Shown in pieces: positions 1,650 to 53,055 of a stretch of DNA of 64,000 bases. How positions within the stretch are numbered: position 1 is the stretch's first letter; each line of letters begins with the position of its first letter. The stretch lies in contig OX597824.1 in NCBI GenBank assembly GCA_951406725.2, forward strand, positions 7,812,001 through 7,876,000, given 5' to 3'. A model generated the notes under the pieces. That model was not told the origin of the DNA, ran no database searches, and worked only from the letters and a program-made list of their open reading frames with translations. The stretch comes from Octopus vulgaris. Lineage: Eukaryota. The position numbers were made by a program, and so were the translations under genes.

Positions 1650-2203
1650 GAGTGAGAGAGCAGTTCATGCCATCAAAGTGACACTGGGGTAAAATATACG
1701 AAGCCCAATATACCCATCATGACTACCCGTCTGATAAGGGTACACCAGGCAAATGCCTCACAACCATATGTGCGCGACATGGTGATCTTATATCAAGATA
1801 AACAGCACATGACCTTGCAGGTGGGGCCCAGTTAAAATTTTCTTCTGGTTGAGTAGCCCATCCTGCTCAAAAGGTCCCTGAATAAGGGTTGTTTAAGGAT
1901 GTTGAAAGAACCACCCATGTTTCCAGAGGTGAATTATTCAAACCCCAAAGAATCCCTCTCAACACATGGCTATGATGCTCCCCCACTACTTCTGCTCGTG
2001 ATCAGAGATGCACATATCGTCAGCCACTAAGGGACATGCTCAACTGGTTATGGTCAAACAATTGACAAGCAAATCTGTGGTATTGAGCAGAATATTTGCT
2101 GTAGCCCATCTTTTATACCAAGACAAAACAATGTACATGATAACACTTCCAGTCAGTTAAGATCAGAAGCCATGAGAGCCACTGCCTGGTACTGCATCAG
2201 GGC

Positions 2204-2206
<3 letters not shown>
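1650..2206. mobile_element. Non-coding interspersed element bounded by (TTA)n, with a second partial copy at 1548-1600
   Basis: The end atcagaagccatgagag...ctggtactgcatc..ggcattt occurs twice, each time running into (TTA)n. Confidence 0.6.
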
Positions 2207-2258
<52 letters not shown>

Positions 2259-3860
2259 GCGTTTGCACTGCTTCTAACGCTATAGATGTGCTACAGTGTC
2301 AGCTGTTCACTATCAGTGAACTAAGATTACACCTCTTATTTTTCGAGTACTTTCCGGAGTATTCGAGCGGTTCCAAGCAGTGCTGTTTTCTGCAAGTGTT
2401 CCACCCTTATTGCAGCCCCTATTTGTTCCGTGTACTTCTTAAGATTTTTACTCACTGTTCCCAGGGTTTGTATTGGGAAGTTCCAAAGGATGGTAACGCA
2501 GTCACCATTTACTACATCCTCTGGATGGTGCCTGTAACACTTATAATGGGACTTAATTTTGTAGTATTTACAAACATTCCAGTGGATGTACTACCCTAGT
2601 CTGTCATGTCTCACGAAGTACTCCTTTTCAGTGAGGACTGGGCAGCCAGAAACAACATGATCAATTGTCTCTGTGAATTTTCCACAAATTCTGCACGAGG
2701 GGTTAAATCCATCTTTAGGGACGTTTGCATGGTAGTCTCTGGTAGGTAAGCTCTTTTCTTGCGCTGCAATAACATAATCTATTTCCCCTTTCAGGCCTGT
2801 CTCTTGTAGCCACTGGTGTGTTAGATTTTGATCAATATCTGGCTTGGACAGGCGGTTAGGGTATTTTCCATGCAGAAGACGAGTTAGATCAATACGGAAA
2901 AAAGATCTCAATGCAGAAGTTTACCTTTCCAGTTGTCCTTGATACTACTCATGCAAGCCTCTTTTGCTTTTTGCTTGATGTTTTTTGCATCAGTGATAGG
3001 TTTGTCTATTTTGGTCAGTTCATTTAGTGTCCAATTAAGGATATTGTAGCTGTAACTTATAACTGGGATGTTAATACCTATTATCTTGTTTTTAGCATTG
3101 AGATCTTTCTCCGTATTGATCTAACTCGTCTATAGTATTCTTTCTTTATTTTCTCTTTCATTTGTGTGTGTTGTGTCTTATCTAGTTCATTGATTCCTAA
3201 ATATTTGTATGCCTGGCTTTGGTCTAATTCTCTTATTTCATTGACTTTATCTAGCATGATGTTACTACTCTTAACTAGTTTTCCTCTTTTCAGAGATGCT
3301 TTGGCGCATTTTTCTAATCCAAATTTCATATCTATTTCTTTGGTAAACCCATGTACTGTCTGTAGTAGTGTTTCCAACTGTTTATCATTTGTAGCGTATA
3401 TTTTTTTAGGCCATCCATATATAAAAGGTGGCTTATTGTTTTGCCGTAGCATTTGTATCCGCATCCAGTTCTATTTATCAGGTCAGATGAAGGTGTCAGT
3501 GCCGAGCAGAAAAGGAGTGGAGAGAACGTGTATCCCTGGAATATTCCTCTTTTAATGGGGATGGCTTTGGTTTTCACGAGTCCCTCTTTTGTTTGGAACT
3601 GTAGCACTGTCTGTCATTAGTCATTGAGTGTCTTATGAATCTTATAATTATTGGTGCTACCTTGTTGATGGCTAGTGTTTCAAGGATCCACGAGAGAGGA
3701 ATACTATCAAAAGCCTTTCGGTAGTCGATCCACCCAATACTGAGGCCTTTCTTCTTTTTGCGGCAGTCTTTAGTTATGGTTTTATTGATCATTAGTTGAT
3801 CTTTACAGCCATAAGAGCCATTGCAGCATCCCTTCTGCTCTTCTGGAAACAGGTTGTTTA
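2259..3860 (-). mobile_element. Decayed R4/Dong-like non-LTR retrotransposon (RT, CCHC finger) in (TAA)n
   Basis: Fragments WIDYRKAFDS, RGIFQGYTFSPLLF, ISHLLYMD, YKYLG and CRICGKFTETIDHVVSGC; TTA repeats on both sides. Confidence 0.88.
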
Positions 3861-17748: not shown

Positions 17749-17810
17749 GTAAGTTGATCATTATGGAATTGAATATTCATTTACAAAGTCAATCAGTTCA
17801 TATGCTGGTC

Positions 17811-18500
17811 ATTACAAAGTTGATCATTACAAAGTTGATCATTACGAAGTTGATCATTACGAAGTTGATCATTACGAAGTTGATTATTACGAAGTTGATC
17901 ATTACGAAGTTGATCATTACGAAGTTGATCATTACGAAGTTGATCATTACAAAGTTGATCATTACAAAGTTGATCATTACAAAGTTCATCATTACAAAGT
18001 TGATCATTACAAAGCTGATCATTACGAAGTTCATCATTACAAAGTTGATCATTACAAAGTTGATCATTACAAAGTTGATCATTACAAAGTTGATCATTAC
18101 AAAGTTGATCATTATAAAGTTGATCATTACAAAGTTGATCATTACGAAGTTGATCATTACAAAGTTGATCATTACGAAGTTGATCATTACAAAATTGATT
18201 ATTACGAAGTTGAGCATTACAAAGTTGATCATTACAAAGTTGATCATTACAAAGTTGATCATTACGAAGTTGATCATTACGAAGTTGATCATTACAAAAT
18301 TGATTATTACGAAGTTGAGCATTACAAAGTTCATCATTACAAAGTTGATCATTACAAAGTTGATCATTACGAAGTTGATCATTACGAAGTTGATCATTAC
18401 GAAGTTGATCATTACAAAGTTGATCATTACGAAGTTGATCATTACGAAGTTGATCATTACGAAGTTGATCATTACAAAGCTGATTATTACGAAGTTGAGC
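17811..18500. repeat. 15-bp minisatellite (ATTACRAAGTTGATC), about 46 copies
   Basis: Direct inspection; source of the ITKLI and MINFV pseudo-ORFs. Confidence 0.97.
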
Positions 18501-19245
18501 ATTTCTAAGGTGGTCATTGCAAAGTTGAACATTGCTGAATTAAATATTTCCCTCATTTCAATTATTCGTTTTTCAACCTCATTCTTTCTCTCACATTCTC
18601 TATGTCTATTTCTCTGTCTGTCTGTGTGTCAGTGTCTCTCTATATTCCCCTTCTCTCACTCTCCTTCTCTCTCACACACACACTAACTCTCACCTCCCTC
18701 TTACATAAATGCACACACGTTATCTCAAAGTGAGATAAAGTGTGACCAATCCCACGAGGTAGGCTTTCGCACGACTCGGGATGACCCACTGACATCTCGA
18801 GCCCCGGCTTCACGGTGCCGGTGGGGGACGGTTTCGGTACCTTTTGTTACCCTCGTACGAGACTGGTGCTTATTTTAGTAAACACCAGTCTTAAACAATT
18901 CAGTTCTGGGGTCAATTTGTCCGACTAAACCCATGAAAGCGGCTTTCTGGTATGGCTGCAGTCCAATGACTGAATCAAGCTAAGCATAAATGATAAAAGA
19001 TTTGGTAATCAATCTTTGAAATGTCGAAATTGAATACAACTTTAACAAAACCTAAAATTAACAGTATTTCCATATATTAATGTATTCGGCACCACCCACC
19101 CACCCGCGCTCACACATTTCTTATATATTTCTGCCTAATTTCCTACCTAGATTATTTCTCCACCCATTACTCTCCCGCCTTGTAAATATCGGTCATAAAA
19201 ATAAACACAATATTATCACATTCTCAACTTGAAACCGTTTCTTCC

Positions 19246-35410: not shown

Positions 35411-37159
35411 TTAAAAAAGAAAAGATAAAATAATTATATATAAACAAATCAATTACTTTTGCAGTTAAATCTTTGGGCGGGGGGCTCCATGAAGTGAAGG
35501 AAATTGCTTAAGGCTAGTGGATCCTTGATATTAAATTGGCCCTTGAAACTTGACCACAGTTTAAAGACCAGACTTGTAATTTTTGCATTGGAACAGATAA
35601 TGGTATAAAGTGTCTGCGTATTCTCCATAATACCATAAATGTGATTCCATGCGATCTGTATTCTAAAGAATGCAACCCAAAGGAATGCAGCCCGTTTGAA
35701 GCCAACAAAAGTCTTCATTTATTAAACCTACCAGGTGTCAGATATGTTTTATACGTTACCAGATATGGTTGACATATTGGGGAGATTAAAGACTGATTAA
35801 AGTTAGCTTATCGTTTGATTGTTTCCAGTAAGTTTTATCACCATTGACTAATCATGGATTTGCAGACTGATTTCACTTTTGACAGATTTGTAATCTATAT
35901 CTTTGTAATGTAGTCTGTATCTTATTTCTTACTTTGCTCCATCAATTACTTATTCATCTTGTTTCCCATTTTCCTAAATCTGTGTAGAAGTGTCTAAATC
36001 ATTGTTATTAAATTATCAATATTTTCTGCTCAATATATATCTATTTTGTAGAGAATATTCCCGATTATTTTCTACAGGATTTCTTTTTAAAGAGTTCAAG
36101 TTCGACAGGTTATCAAAGAATGGAAAATCATTCTTATTTTTCCTTTTGCAAATTTTTATTTTATTTTATTTTATTTATTTATTTTTTTGCAAAATTCGAG
36201 TGCATTATCGTTCCTCACCATTCAACATCAAATGTTGTAAAAGCACGATACAATCTGAAGATGGTATTTTAAAATCTATTTTGAAAGATCAAGGCTAGCC
36301 GAACGCTCAAATCCCTTCCCTGAATATGGCGTATCTGTGCAAACGACGTATTTATGCTGTTCCTTTCTTTCCTCCATTGATTTATTTTATTGCTACTTTG
36401 AAAAAATTCCATTTGTTTTAAGCATGGACTTGACTTATTGTCATACTCTTCTAATTTCAATAAAAAGTGAACAGTTTTGTTTAAAATAAGATGTTGTACA
36501 ACTTGGATATAATTTACAACACTGCAATGTGAATAAAATCCGAAACATCTCCCAATTATTGATCGCTAAAGACGGCTTCACCAGTCTTTACTATTTTAGC
36601 ATTTGCACCCGTTAGAATCTAGAATCGTATGCAAGAAAATAAATATGTATAGAGAGTGTGCCATCAATACCGGATTGGGAGTGATTAATATAATGTCTTT
36701 GTGATATAAAACAATTGCTAATCGTTTTGTGCAGTTATTATAATTGTATAAAAACATTAATAAGGCATTGGAAGAAAGACGGAAAAAATAACATTCAGTT
36801 TGTTTTACACGTTTTACGAAAATCGCTCAGGGGAGGTAAGTACAAATTAAAGAAATGTTTGATTTATTTCCCTTTATATGATAGATTTGTTATTAGAATA
36901 AGTAACGTGAAGTGAGATTTAAATGGGGTTTTATTTGTAGCTTTTCAACTTATAAATCTTTATAATGATATAAGATAACCACCTGTCTGACTCTCTACCT
37001 TGCTAATTAGGAAGGTGTATATACATAGTCTGAGTGGTATGAGAAAAAGACTTGATATAGCCCATTGATAGATGTCTGGGATGATATGTTAATGAGCGGT
37101 CGACACTCTTGTGTCACGCAGTTTGCTGCTAGTTTTATACGTATATACGAAAGTGCACA

Positions 37160-38087
37160 CATACATACATACATACATACATACATACATACATACATAC
37201 ATACATACATACATACATTCATACATACATGCATGCATTCATACATACATGCATGCATACATACATAATACATACATACATACACACACACATATATACA
37301 TACATACATACATACATACATACATACATACATACATACGTACATGCATGCATGCATGCATGCATACATGCATACATGCATACATACATACATACATTCA
37401 TACATGCATACATACATGCATACACGCACACACATGCATGCATACATACATACATACACACACACATATACACATACATACATACATACATACATACATA
37501 CATACATACATACATACATACATACACACATACATACATACATACATACATACATACATACATACATACATACATACATACATACATACATACACACACA
37601 CATACACACATACACACATACATACATAAATACATACATTCATACATACATTCATACATACATACATGCATGCATGCATACATTCATACACACATACATA
37701 CATACATTCATACATACATACATGCATACATACATGCATACATGCACATACATACATACACGCACACACATGCATGCATACATACATACACACATTCATA
37801 CATACATACATACATACATACATACACACACACATACACACATACACACATACATACATAAATACATACATACATACATACATTCATACATACATTCATA
37901 CATGCATACATGCATGCATGCATGCATACATGCATACATGCATACATGCATACATTCATACATACATACATGCATGCATGCATACACGCATACATACATA
38001 CATTCATACATACATACATGCATACATGCATACATACATACATACATACATACATACATACATACATACATACACACATACATACAT
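37160..38087. repeat. (CATA/CATG/CACA)n array with higher-order duplication
   Basis: Direct inspection. Confidence 0.97.
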
Positions 38088-38193
38088 AAATTCAGGGTGA
38101 GTACTTGATAATTGTAAGCACCTGTATATACCGTTTGGTGGTGTAGGTGGTGGAGTAAATTAATCAAAATAAAAACATGATGCCAAGGATTCA

Positions 38194-38271
38194 GCGGTAC
38201 ATATGTTTCGGGCCTTTATTAGACGGATTTAATACAATGCATAATGTGTGCCTATGGCCTTCTTCAGCCGC
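38194..38271 (-). ncRNA. Type-I hammerhead ribozyme motif
   Basis: Reverse complement of the 38448-38525 motif. Confidence 0.8.
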
Positions 38272-38447
38272 GCACAACTACTACGTCAAGGGCATGTATT
38301 ACATCAAAAATTCTACGTTGGGGATGCAAATCCTCTCAGTCGCGTACGACATAATGCGGCAACAGCATAAAAATGAAGCGTCCATCCCGTCCTTCTCTCA
38401 ATGTAGAATTTTTGATGTAATACATGTCCTTGAGGTAGTTGTTGTGC

Positions 38448-38525
38448 GCGGCTGAAGAAGGCCATAGACACACATTATGCATTGTTATAAATCCGTCTAA
38501 TAAAGGCCCGAAACATATGTACCGC
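38448..38525 (+). ncRNA. Type-I hammerhead ribozyme motif
   Basis: gcgg-CTGAAGA-aggcc atagac...gtcta ataaa ggccc-GAAAC-atat-GTA|ccgc; predicted cut after 38521. Confidence 0.82.
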
Positions 38526-38864
38526 TGAATCCTTGGCATCATGTTTTTATTTTGATTAATTTACATACATACATGCATACATGCATACATGCATACATGC
38601 ATAAATGCATACATACATTCATACATACATACATACATACATGCATATATGCATGCATGCCTACATACATACATTCATACATACATACATGCATACATGC
38701 ATACATACATACATACATACATACATACATACATACATACATACACACATACATACATAAATTCAGGGTGAGTACTTGATAATTGTAAGCACCTGTATAT
38801 ACCGTTTGGTGGTGTAGGTGGTGGAGTAAATTAATCAAAATAAAAACATGATGCCAAGGATTCA

Positions 38865-38942
38865 GCGGTACATATGTTTCGGGCCTTTATTAGACGGATT
38901 TATAACAATGCATAATGTGTGCCTATGGCCTTCTTCAGCCGC
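38865..38942 (-). ncRNA. Type-I hammerhead ribozyme motif
   Basis: Copy of 38194-38271 at +671. Confidence 0.8.
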
Positions 38943-39118
38943 GCACAACTACTACGTCAAGGGCATGTATTACATCAAAAATTCTACGTTGGGGATGCAA
39001 ATCCTCTCATTCGCGTACGACATAATGCGGCAACAGCATAAAAATGAAGCGTCCATCCCGTCCTTCTCTCAATGTAGAATTTTTGATGTAATACATGTCC
39101 TTGAGGTAGTCGTTGTGC

Positions 39119-39196
39119 GCGGCTGAAGAAGGCCATAGACACACATTATGCATTGTTATAAATCCGTCTAATAAAGGCCCGAAACATATGTACCGC
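39119..39196 (+). ncRNA. Type-I hammerhead ribozyme motif
   Basis: Copy of 38448-38525 at +671; predicted cut after 39192. Confidence 0.82.
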
Positions 39197-40127
39197 TGAA
39201 TCCTTGGCATCATGTTTTTATTTTGATTAATTTACATACATACATACATGCATACATACATGCATACATGCATACATGCATAAATGCATACATACATTCA
39301 TACATACATACATACATACATGCATATATGCATGCATGCCTACATACATACATTCATACATACATACATGCATACATGCATACATACATACATACATACA
39401 TACATACATACATACATACATACATACATACATACATACATACACACATACAAACATACATACAAACATACATATATACATACATACAAACATACATATA
39501 TACATATGTAGGTATGTGAGTGTGTGTGTGTACGACGAGCTCCTTTCAGTTTCCGTCAACCAAAGTCGCTCACAAGGCTTTGGTTGGTCCGAGGCTAGAG
39601 TGGAAGACATTTGCCGAACGTGGCACGGTGAGGGACTGAACCCGGTGCCATGTGGTTGGAAAGCAACCTTCTTACCACATAGCCAATAATCTATTTCGAT
39701 GACGGTTGACCAAAGTGATGACCAGATCGTTTCAAGGATCCGGCATCAAAGCTATTCAAACTGTTGTATTTACAATTTGTGACATTTTGTTTTTCAATAC
39801 CGGCTGAGAATAAATTTTAACTTTGTTGTTGTCATTTTGTAACAATGACGCACCTTCAACAGCTGTTTATGACGTCATTGCTTACCTACCTTCCTACCTT
39901 CCTACCTACCTACCTACATACCTACCTACCTACCTACCTTCATACATACATACATACATACATACATACATACATACATACATACATACATACATACATA
40001 CATACATACATACATACATACATACATACAATTTAAATAATATAAATTAATTAATTTTATGTATTGGCTTATGTTTTTCATTGTTTGATTTGCCTAATAG
40101 TGGTTTTATCTCTAATTTAATATAACA

Positions 40128-46172: not shown

Positions 46173-46385
46173 GTTTCTCGTGTCCCAGTTTCTCGGTGTC
46201 TCGGTTTCTCGGTGACCCGGTTTCTCGGTGTCCCGGTTTCTCGATGTCCAGGTTTTTCGGTGTCTCGGTTTCTCGGTGTCTCGGTTTCCCGGTGTCCCGG
46301 TTTCTCGGTGTCCCGGTTTCTCGGTGTCTCGGTTTCTCGGTGTCACGGTTTCTCGGTGTCCCGGTTTCTCGGTGTCCCGATTTCT
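46173..46385. repeat. 16-bp CpG-rich minisatellite (CGGTTTCT CGGTGTCY) inside a SINE tail
   Basis: About 13 units; the right flank continues as SINE sequence (gacgccggt...gagtggac...gtgttttgctcaagg). Confidence 0.9.
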
Positions 46386-46559
46386 CTTGGACGGGCAGGA
46401 CGCCGGTTTGTTACAGGGTTACTCAATTTTGCCAGCCGAGTGGACAAAAAGCAAAGTGAAATGAAGTGTTTTGCTCAAGGATCCAATCCAACGATTTTAC
46501 AGTTCCGCTGATCCAGTGATTTGGATTCATAATTTTTTTAACGATGCCGAAATGATTAG

Positions 46560-49390: not shown

Positions 49391-50700
49391 ATACATACAT
49401 ACATACATACATGCATGCATGCATGCATACATACATACATACATACATACATACATACATACATACATACATACAATCATACATACATACATACATACAA
49501 TCATACATACAATCATACATACATACATACATACATGCATGCATGCATGCATACATACATACATACATACATACATACATGCATACATACATACATACAT
49601 ACATACATACATACATGCATGCATGCATGCATACATACATACATACATACATACATACATACATACATACATACATACATACATACATACATACATACAT
49701 ACATACATACATACATACATACATACATACATACATACATACATACATGCATGCATGCATGCATGCATACATACATACATACATACATACATACATACAT
49801 ACATGCATACATACATACATACATACATACATACATACATACATACATACATGCATGCATGCATACATACATACATACATACATGAATGCATACATACAT
49901 ACATACATACATGCATACATGCATACATACATACATACATACATACAATCATACATACATACATACATACATGCATGCATGCATGCATACATACATACAT
50001 ACATACATACATGCATACATACATACATACATACATACATACATACATAAAGACATACATACATACATACTCACATGCATGCATAGATACATACATGCAT
50101 ACATACATACATGCATACATACATACATACATACATACATACATACATGCATGCATGCATGCATACATACATACATACATACATGCATGCATGCATGCAT
50201 ACATACATACATACATACATACATACATACATACATACATACATACATACATACATGCATACATGCATACATACATACATACATACATGCATGCATGCAT
50301 GCATACATACATACATACATACATACATGCATACATACATACATACATACATAAAGACATACATACATACATACATACATACATACATGCATGCATAGAT
50401 ACATACATACATACATACATACATACATGCATGCATACATACATACATACATACATACATACATACATACATACATACATACATACATACATACATAAAG
50501 ACATACATACATACATACATACATGCATGCGTAGATACATACATACATACATACATGCATGCATACATACATACATACATACATACATACATACATACAT
50601 ACATACATAAAGACATACATACATACATACATACATGCATGCATACATACATACATACATACATACATACATACATACAAAAGACATACATACATACATA
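49391..50700. repeat. (CATA/CATG)n array, about 1.3 kb, followed by (TAGA)n and (TAGG)n to 50930
   Basis: Direct inspection. Confidence 0.98.
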
Positions 50701-50930: not shown

Positions 50931-53055
50931 CCTACAAGTTTCGCCCCATTACCGCTTCGTATTCTTTTAGTGTCTCGCCGACCAGGTCGATATGCCTGTG
51001 GTTCGACTCTATCACGGTAACGTCGTCCGCGTATGCAGACACTCTCCTCCCGCATCCCAGTTCTCGCGGGATGCCCCTCAGCGTCGCCAGCTTCCGCAGT
51101 AGTGGCTCTAAAGTCAATACATACAGAAGTGACAAGAGAGGGGCATCCTTGACGAACCGAACGCATGATGTTAAATGGTCTGGGTAGATGACCATTTACG
51201 CGAACTACCGAGCGGATGACGCTGTATAAAGCAGCGATTCAACCGCCGAAGACGAGACCGAAACCAGCCGCTCTAAGGACAGCCTCCAAATAGCGATGGT
51301 CTACCCTATCGAAAGCTTTTGATTGATCCAAATTGATCAGCGCCCCACCCATGCCAGGTTCCTTAACTACCTTGTCTATGATGTAGCGCATCAGATGGAG
51401 GTTGTCATGGATACTCCTGCCCGACACGGCACATGTTTGTGCCTTGTCGACCAGTTTCTCGATGACAGGTGTCAGCCTCTCGGCTAGCACCTTGGCCAAA
51501 ATCTTCAAATCTGCGTTGAGCGGAGTGATGGGCATTAAGTTATCTATGATGTTCCCCTTGTTTCGATCTTTCCTTAGCAGTTCCACCGCTCCTCGCTTCA
51601 CAGAAACGGGAATACACCCGTTTTGCTGCCAGTTGCAGTAGACCGCTGCCAAGACGCCTCCAAACAAGTCTGGCATATGACAATAAAGTTCGTAGGGCAG
51701 ACTATCCAAGCCTGGCGACTTGTCTCCCCCGCAGCCTGCCATCGCATCCCGTACGTCCGGGGCTATGATGGGTCTTTCATAACACTCCGCCTCTCTTGCC
51801 GAGAGTAGTGGCAGGCCACATCCTTTCGGGCTTGAGAAATTCGCGTCCTTCATCTGTTAGAGACCTAATGATGGTTTTATTGCCTCGTTGGACCTCCGCC
51901 ACTCGGGTCTCGCGGCCGGCTCCAACTCTTTCGTTCCTCAGAGCACGCATCCAATCTCTGACAACGCATCCTTCGTGTTTGGCTTTGAAGCGTTGGTCGA
52001 GGGCCAACCTCGCCACCAGTACGTTGGACGTGATGCCAGTTCTGAGTGTCTCTTCTAATTTCTTAACTAGGTCTCCCTCTATTTCAGTCTAATGATTGGG
52101 CCTTACTATACCTAACCGCTTCTGCTTTAATTGCTTTCTTTAGGGCATACCACCATCTCAATGCTCTCTTAACTAATGTGCTAATCAGGTCCCTGTAAGC
52201 CTGGCGTGCTGTGAACGACGCGTTCAGATTCCAGTAACCGGGACCCTGCCTGTGGCTCTTATCTAAGTCAAGCGTACACGTTTGTGATCTGTGTAGCTGA
52301 CTATATGGAATTGTGGACAACCTACACTATCCCTATCCATTGTCCTACAGAATACTCTATCTAAATGCGATCTGGGCGATCCGATGCGGTTGCTCCATGT
52401 CCACATTGGCACATTCGGGTGGTCCAGTCGGTACCTGTCAGACAGTTGGAAACGTCTGAGCAGGTCTTTGAGGCATTTACATCCCCTCCTATTACTATCT
52501 CCGCCCTCGTAGTCTAGATGCGTGTCCAAGGTAGTGTTCCAATCCCCCACTAAAAGTAAAGGTCAAGACGTCCCCAGGAAAACCTCTAGACATCGAAAGA
52601 AATATGGCCGACCTATTAAGGACGCTGCATAAACTGTTATCAGTCGAAAAGCCATCGACATCCAAGACGACCAGCCTAGGAACATTTCTCTTACTTTGAC
52701 GACCAGCCTAGGAACATTTCTCTTACTTTGAAGTCCAGACTCTTCCGGAGAAGCACCGCGGTGCCACCTCCGCCCATTCTCGACAGACATGGAGAAAAAT
52801 AAATGTCGAAATGTCCATTGAACAAGTGCTGGAGGGCCCGCGGGTTGTGGAGTCTGGTCTCAATGATGGCTATGATATACATATTCTGTGGCTTAATGTC
52901 ATTTAACAGGTAGCCTTGTTTCCAAGGCGACCCCAAGCCACGTACATTTATACAACTTATTCTGAGCATGTACCTATCGAAAGTTGTGTTTTACACACGA
53001 AGGAAGACGAAAGAGGGTGAGAGAGAGAGAGAGAGACAGAAAGAGAGAGACAGAA

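Follow-up and report, generated by a model that had tools for sequence, protein, structure and literature searches.

A head-to-head terminal repeat insertion of a Hydra-clade Penelope-like element, likely duplicated in place, in Octopus vulgaris

Introduction

The canonical insertion unit of Penelope-like elements (PLEs) comprises a terminal repeat (pLTR) and an adjacent inverted, 5'-truncated copy, with a tail at one end (PMC8557442, PMC3846280). Among these elements the Hydra clade is marked by DKT, CxCX5C, CxxC and CxH protein motifs and by (TA)n targets (Craig et al. 2021, PMC8557442). The entry for one relative described there, Penelope-13_HM, gives an inverted 5'-truncated copy together with a hammerhead on each strand, and Hydra-clade hammerheads are in many cases drawn without a standard pair before GAA (PMC8557442). 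Pairs of hammerheads on opposite strands, 100-700 bp apart, had already been noted alongside the minimal PLE hammerheads (Cervera and de la Pena 2014, PMC4209133), while in vitro work on Poseidon PAc found two internal reverse transcriptase (RT) starts and extension of both target strands, with hammerhead cleavage not needed (Frangieh et al. 2024, PMC11167929). Metazoan non-LTR retrozymes, which are non-coding, tandem, derived from PLE pLTRs and equipped with type-I hammerheads (PMC7761336; bioRxiv 10.64898/2026.07.22.740005), offer a further comparison.

Here we analyse a window of 64 kb (the whole stretch of Octopus vulgaris DNA under study), in which a sequence-only reading had recognised a repeated unit bearing hammerhead motifs on both strands, and had proposed that transcription of either strand could release a retrozyme-like RNA. 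We favour, with a probability of roughly 0.85, a plainer account, in which the ribozyme-bearing terminal repeat of a Hydra-clade PLE inserted head to head and in shortened form to give each unit, and the two units likely arose by a later local duplication that included (CATA)n flank.

Results

The window contains a 477-bp element twice, at 38088-38564 and 38759-39235, with an offset of 671 bp and mismatches at 4 of 477 positions (38232, 38233, 38339 and 38440). Within each copy two inverted arms of 166 nt (38155-38320/38399-38564 in copy 1, 38826-38991/39070-39235 in copy 2) are 96-97% complementary and separated by 78 nt. The sequence-only reading had this geometry right, having described a 671-bp unit present twice with few differences between copies, and arms of about 165 bp around a 78-nt gap. 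Its 78-nt 'loop' and 67-nt lead are likewise present, but are in fact pieces of the element's pLTR and tail: the order of pLTR, tail and ORF in full-length family members (see below) identifies loop plus arm as pLTR and the lead as PLE tail. In copy 1, on the minus strand, the tail (38088-38154) corresponds to the beginning of the parent's 5' UTR, immediately following the pLTR, and the long arm (38155-38409) runs from a putative transcription start at 38409 to the pLTR end, with the loop (38321-38398) falling inside it. Long arm and tail together form 322 nt collinear with natural copies at ~98% (the best matches coming from copy 2) and match full-length L060 at 88-89%. The short arm (38399-38564, plus strand) is a tail-less 3' part of the pLTR beginning at -111, counted from the hammerhead GAAA. 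The arms meet at an inversion junction (38399-38409), an 11-nt microhomology from an imperfect inverted repeat within the parent pLTR (-200 to -190 and -111 to -101). Copy 2 repeats this arrangement, with its tail at 38759-38825 (minus strand, a copy of the first), long arm at 38826-39080 (minus strand, putative start 39080) and short arm at 39070-39235 (plus strand). Apart from a 92-aa antisense frame and repeat frames, the unit has no coding frames.

The insertion site lies in a host (CATA)n array (37159-38087 upstream), and the sequence between the two copies (38565-38758) is duplicated host (CATA)n flank: it matches the flank behind copy 2 (39236-39506) except for an 8-nt insertion and two substitutions, and over its final ~97 nt it is the same as the flank preceding copy 1. 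Its earlier assignment to the unit was therefore wrong, other copies of the family lying mostly in (TA)n.

As for the wider host context, 16 frames in the window were scanned and only one piece scored above cut-off, a LINE-type RT fragment at 51242-51856 on the minus strand (Pfam RVT_1, 4.5e-10). The window also holds a homogeneous 15-bp minisatellite at 17809-18533 (48 copies, 91% matches) and a GC-rich minisatellite at 46173-46386 (16-bp unit, 13 copies). Following the (CATA)n flank, 39520-39700 resembles by eye what lies past the L060 end, and is likely an interspersed repeat common in the host.

The sequence-only reading had pointed to the inverted pLTRs and dimer-type hammerheads of Penelope-like elements and had suggested a genome search for copy number and a parent; the link is supported, and full-length parents were found elsewhere in the genome. 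A search of the octopus's own 2.8-Gb genome gave 2,293 candidates, 40 of which were scored. In longer family members these two ends enclose 1-4.5 kb of internal sequence, which in one case includes an ORF fragment; that fragment led to copies with an open 836-aa frame. In L059-L061 the full-length order is 5' pLTR with hammerhead, tail, 836-aa ORF, 3' UTR and 3' pLTR, the last noted for L060 among these three; the tail sequence follows the 5' pLTR and continues into the ORF start, and the hammerhead motif sits inside the pLTR. Direct pLTRs on both sides of the ORF are seen in L060 and L077. The ORF contains RT motifs, with YRDD at 357-360, and YIG at 730, and among its relatives is a protein named as a GIY-YIG endonuclease (34% over 619 columns); a Pfam scan of the parent ORF gave no RT match. 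Two long Asn/Thr/Arg-rich insertions lie between the RT thumb and the endonuclease in L061 (3596-6103), absent from the relative P0085 and recalling the N-rich inserts described in PMC3846280.

The Hydra-clade change from DKG to DKT is found as ADKTG at 126 of the parent ORF, the CxCX5C linker as CNCRCASEC at 696, and CxxC and CxH as CQLC and CIH near the C-terminus, read from the translation. These motifs, together with the C-terminal endonuclease and the (TA)n targets into which nearly all family ends run (the window copy lies in (CATA)n instead), are shared with the Hydra clade, for example Penelope-13_HM and Hydra-1_Obim (PMC8557442), as are the position of a type-I hammerhead near the 3' end and its short palindromic stem III. 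By motifs, and with the reference proteins compared by eye from a supplement, the unit is the terminal repeat of a Hydra-clade PLE. The Naiad clade was rejected, the endonuclease being C-terminal and a hammerhead present. A different hammerhead sequence sets the window's family apart from Hydra-1_Obim as a new Hydra-clade family. It further differs from the clade as described in PMC8557442 in having RWA where RWK is expected, a long stem II insertion, and a length in L060 of about 4.4 kb from start site to start site, against less than 3 kb, the greater length being due to a long microsatellite-rich 3' UTR. The family is young, with sharply defined ends and apparently intact ORFs.

A type-I hammerhead descriptor found exactly four motifs in the 64 kb, all within the arms, compared with one match in total across 30 block shuffles. 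The two on the minus strand (38194-38271 and 38865-38942) would be cut at 38198 and 38869, and the two on the plus strand (38448-38525 and 39119-39196) after 38521 and 39192. The count of two per strand and both plus-strand cuts had been predicted correctly, as had every element of the motif: stem I GCGG/CCGC, CUGAAGA, GGCC/GGCC, GAAAC, the palindrome ACAUAUGU and GUA. Rfam at gathering scores gave no hammerhead match in the whole window, nor a hammerhead family match in 38400-38560, and an E-value scan of 6 kb returned microsatellite-driven matches only. In short stem I, long stem II, the extra base after the core and a palindromic, likely dimer-dependent stem III, the motifs resemble the minimal PLE hammerheads (PMC4209133). 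They differ from those in the 10.1/11.1 pair, which is A-C in the favoured fold; a G10.1-C11.1 register with a bulged C is possible but 3.4 kcal/mol less stable. This A-C pair, raised earlier as a caveat, is indeed present, but matters little, being the family's normal state. Three unrelated single hammerhead-like motifs with palindromic stem III (L110, L113 and L148) turned up in 1.6 Mb scanned and may belong to other PLE families or to chance; as the only such motifs among the loci, they were too few for covariation analysis across other hammerhead families.

Could read-through RNA from either strand cleave itself at both ribozymes, freeing a largely double-stranded 671-nt monomer that circularises, so that the locus would be a retrozyme in both polarities? 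All four cores are intact, and in the predicted fold of an isolated motif stems I and II pair with P 0.82-0.86; monomer stem III is weak (P about 0.25), so that a dimer would also be needed, for which the palindrome pairing between two motif copies is predicted at -7.0 kcal/mol. On both strands, however, the antisense arm is transcribed ahead of each ribozyme. In equilibrium predictions of read-through RNA, with one or both copies and from either strand, the stem I/II pairing probability is 0.0 for every ribozyme, and forcing both stems costs 119 kcal/mol. Each ribozyme is thus predicted to be locked inside a 166-bp duplex, as the earlier caveat of a sequestering upstream arm had foreseen, and it follows that a 671-nt RNA circle from the locus is unlikely. 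In such a circle the proposed 39192-to-38522 junction would read the same as genomic sequence running through the first cut site. Only a minus-strand transcript from the putative internal start would lack the upstream antisense arm, and there the ribozyme fold lies a predicted 8-11 kcal/mol above the best fold, compared with 2-6 in two other natural copies.

A recent retrozyme screen asks for two or more units in direct succession, each bearing a type-I hammerhead on a given strand (bioRxiv 10.64898/2026.07.22.740005), and the tandem passes it in a formal sense only. No dispersed or multimeric family was found, the exact fold-back junction having just three genome matches, two of them in the window, and the ribozymes do not fold in the predicted multimer transcript. 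About 190 nt of the unit is host microsatellite. Metazoan retrozymes are described as direct repeats of about 150-300 nt (PMC7761336) that form families and circles, unlike the window's inverted pair with host DNA at one locus and predicted sequestered ribozymes. Taken with the missing excess of ends at the cut site (below), these features leave the proposed 671-nt monomer unsupported and a retrozyme most improbable; on the features examined the locus is not one, and the fallback offered with the proposal, an ordinary inverted pLTR relic, fits best.

The 21-nt hammerhead core has 1,818 exact genome sites, and its reversed control has 0. Among the first 100 of the core sites on contig C1 we took 20 loci, chosen solely for holding opposite-strand pairs, and in 20 of their 21 pairs the tail stood on exactly one side; the sole exception, L079, has two tail-bearing ends tail to tail. 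Since the elements routinely insert head to head with a one-sided tail, ribozymes on both strands are the family norm. Head-to-head arms, a one-sided tail and a microsatellite target agree with the canonical PLE unit (PMC8557442, PMC3846280), from which the window differs in that both arms are reduced to pLTR and in having a longer tail, about 67-90 nt against 30-40. Either arm, the long or the short, can bear the tail, and arms measure anything from a few nt to kilobases. Contig pieces from sequencing runs cover family sequence, with the window junction bridged by none of those listed.

Two family loci hold additional sequence. L036 has a LINE-type RT between its inverted arms (2008-3219, minus strand; Pfam RVT_1, 8e-26), and L006 (978-1016 and downstream) a diverged tail piece beside a family copy. 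A second, different half-hammerhead in L006, with stem I and core and the matching GAAA half not seen, perhaps belongs to another PLE family.

If the fold-back were a non-autonomous family copied as a fixed unit by the parent's enzymes, in the manner of a MITE or SINE, one could understand the many short fold-backs of similar size, among them six that cluster together and are nearly symmetric, each arm ending close to -200. The junctions, however, are all different, both subfamilies are involved, the loop takes either orientation to the tail, and the window junction recurs at one other locus, of another subfamily, which makes fixed-unit copying very improbable. Self-priming, in which cDNA or antisense RNA folds back at the pLTR's internal inverted repeat and one arm is copied from the other, has more in its favour, an antisense model having been proposed for Adineta PLEs (PMC3846280). 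The window junction falls exactly in the internal 11-nt inverted repeat, as do those of L017 and L021, where the window's breakpoints recur with the tail on the opposite side, and L093 and L094 share the same internal duplication in both arms. Yet most junctions, which vary from copy to copy, show an overlap or filler of 0-3 nt and are located elsewhere than in that repeat, the longer arm can be either one, and solo pLTRs with (TA)n directly upstream begin at the same -200 base; we consider self-priming unlikely, if deserving of some weight. The duplications in L093 and L094, of about 60 and 98 nt, are tandem repeats internal to the arms and derive from the 5' part of the pLTR; that in L094 restarts at -201 as if RT had jumped at the RNA 5' end. 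An origin of the arms from two different pLTR templates was also considered and rejected, the tail and non-tail arms sharing the same letters.

We mapped 5' ends for all 100 listed C1 core sites and dropped two of three copies from a host triplication, leaving 98. Of these, 26 end at -184 to -203 from the hammerhead GAAA, seven exactly at -200, and 29 run beyond about 690. The density of ends in this interval is 1.3 per base, nine times the 0.14 in 160 neighbouring bases. In the whole genome the base before -200 is non-parental at 82 sites; of the first 30 of these, in which three pairs are the two arms of one insertion, 29 proved true truncations. At -204 there are 30 such sites, with truncations in 6 of 10 checked, and 684 sites are intact through -204. 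The non-inverted solo pLTRs L102, L103, L108, L113, L114, L118 and L123 start exactly at -200 with (TA)n directly upstream, two of the solo pLTRs that start there having a G between repeat and element.

At -200 stands the A of CTCATT, a sequence compatible with the initiator BBCA+1BW (PMC5287114), and GGACGCTT at +27 to +34 matches the Penelope downstream element RGACGTGY (PMC2377424) at 6 of 8 positions. In copy 1 the putative core promoter so defined spans 38376-38409 on the minus strand (+1 at 38409), and the other arm replaces the three bases upstream of +1. Across the 82 sites the base before -200 is G in 37, T in 27 and A in 18, an excess of G (p=2e-4 against 0.265; p=0.017 against 1/3) that copying of the cap would predict; for L1, an extra cap G has been noted to act as microhomology (PMC11702581). 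Of the 14 G cases in the first 30 loci, 5 might owe their G to the partner arm. From these DNA ends we infer a start site and cap at -200, a position that is also the 5' end of a predicted hairpin, so that structure could contribute to the pile-up. We found no earlier report of such a start-site footprint in the open-access literature.

The cut site leaves no such trace. Of 14 candidates at the cut, 7 are true 5' ends, compared with 4 out of 14 at cut+1 and 12 out of 19 at cut+4, ends preceded by the parental base being invisible to this count, and seven ends that had looked like a cleavage footprint are thus no excess over the 4 and 12 of the control positions. Copies ending at the cut were not found, 14 candidates resolving into 12 point changes and two short internal deletions. 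Each of the two arms begins downstream of the cut and continues across it, so that the template would have been uncleaved or rejoined; a circular template would have lost the capped 5' piece. Taken together, the ends suggest that capped pLTR RNA, still uncleaved, was the template on which both target ends were primed.

The tandem probably goes back to a single local DNA duplication that carried host (CATA)n flank with it. A 50-nt piece of the ~97-nt shared segment recurs at 37991, 38662 and 39341, and also at 50228, and unequal exchange or slippage in this segment explains the tandem, as would stacking of alleles by the assembler. The arms differ mutually at four sites common to both copies (a fifth difference, at arm position 4, comes from microhomology); as these inter-arm differences are shared, the fold-back insertion likely came before the duplication. 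No further tandem fold-back was found among 41 and 40 other mapped loci (three of the 41 overlapping others). Should the assembly have joined two alleles of a single fold-back insertion through the shared microsatellite, only the duplication step would change. Differences at 4 of 477 positions are at a level possible for two alleles, and the ~97-nt (CATA)n segment on both sides could mislead an assembler; against this, unequal crossing-over in the same segment gives the same structure, and the assembly elsewhere holds a host tandem triplication with a solo pLTR, itself possibly an artefact. We judge an assembly artefact improbable, at perhaps the weight given to self-priming. That triplication (L144-L145, G000:C1:57296600-57316400) has an 8.1-kb period and units more than 99% identical, each with a solo pLTR beginning at -193.

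Discussion

The following sequence of events would account for the fold-back. [quoted passage not shown] One cDNA would reach the capped 5' end at -200 while the other halts at -111, and the two would join through the 11-nt microhomology. The ribozymes would be passengers, and any read-through RNA would form a dsRNA hairpin holding them inactive. RT starts bounding the tail, an AT-rich target and uncleaved RNA as the main template recall Poseidon PAc (PMC11167929), with which the ends of the window family are compatible. Poseidon PAc belongs to another clade, however, whereas the window family has its ribozyme wholly upstream of the ORF, and a 5'-end hotspot at the start site is not among the results reported in the part of that work cited here.

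More broadly, the locus may be a fossil 'strong-stop' product, and the ~1,800 family ends a record of how PLE inverted repeats form: cDNAs from capped, uncleaved RNA would run off at the start, copy the cap as an extra G and anneal head to head. We hold this wider reading tentatively, at a little under even odds. If it is true, the hammerhead plays no part in making the integrated copy. Against the account of the fold-back given above stand the moderate size of the G excess, the DPE-like match of 6 of 8 and the position of the window copy in (CATA)n, not the usual (TA)n.

Taken by itself the locus is unremarkable: truncated, inverted PLE ends are very numerous, and this is a duplicated example. 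The family, for its part, is useful for the question of how PLE inverted pLTRs are formed and what purpose the hammerhead serves. The locus does carry a warning for screens for retrozymes and viroid-like RNAs: PLE fold-backs, by the way they are built, yield ribozymes in both polarities, and a tandem filter can let a host duplication through.
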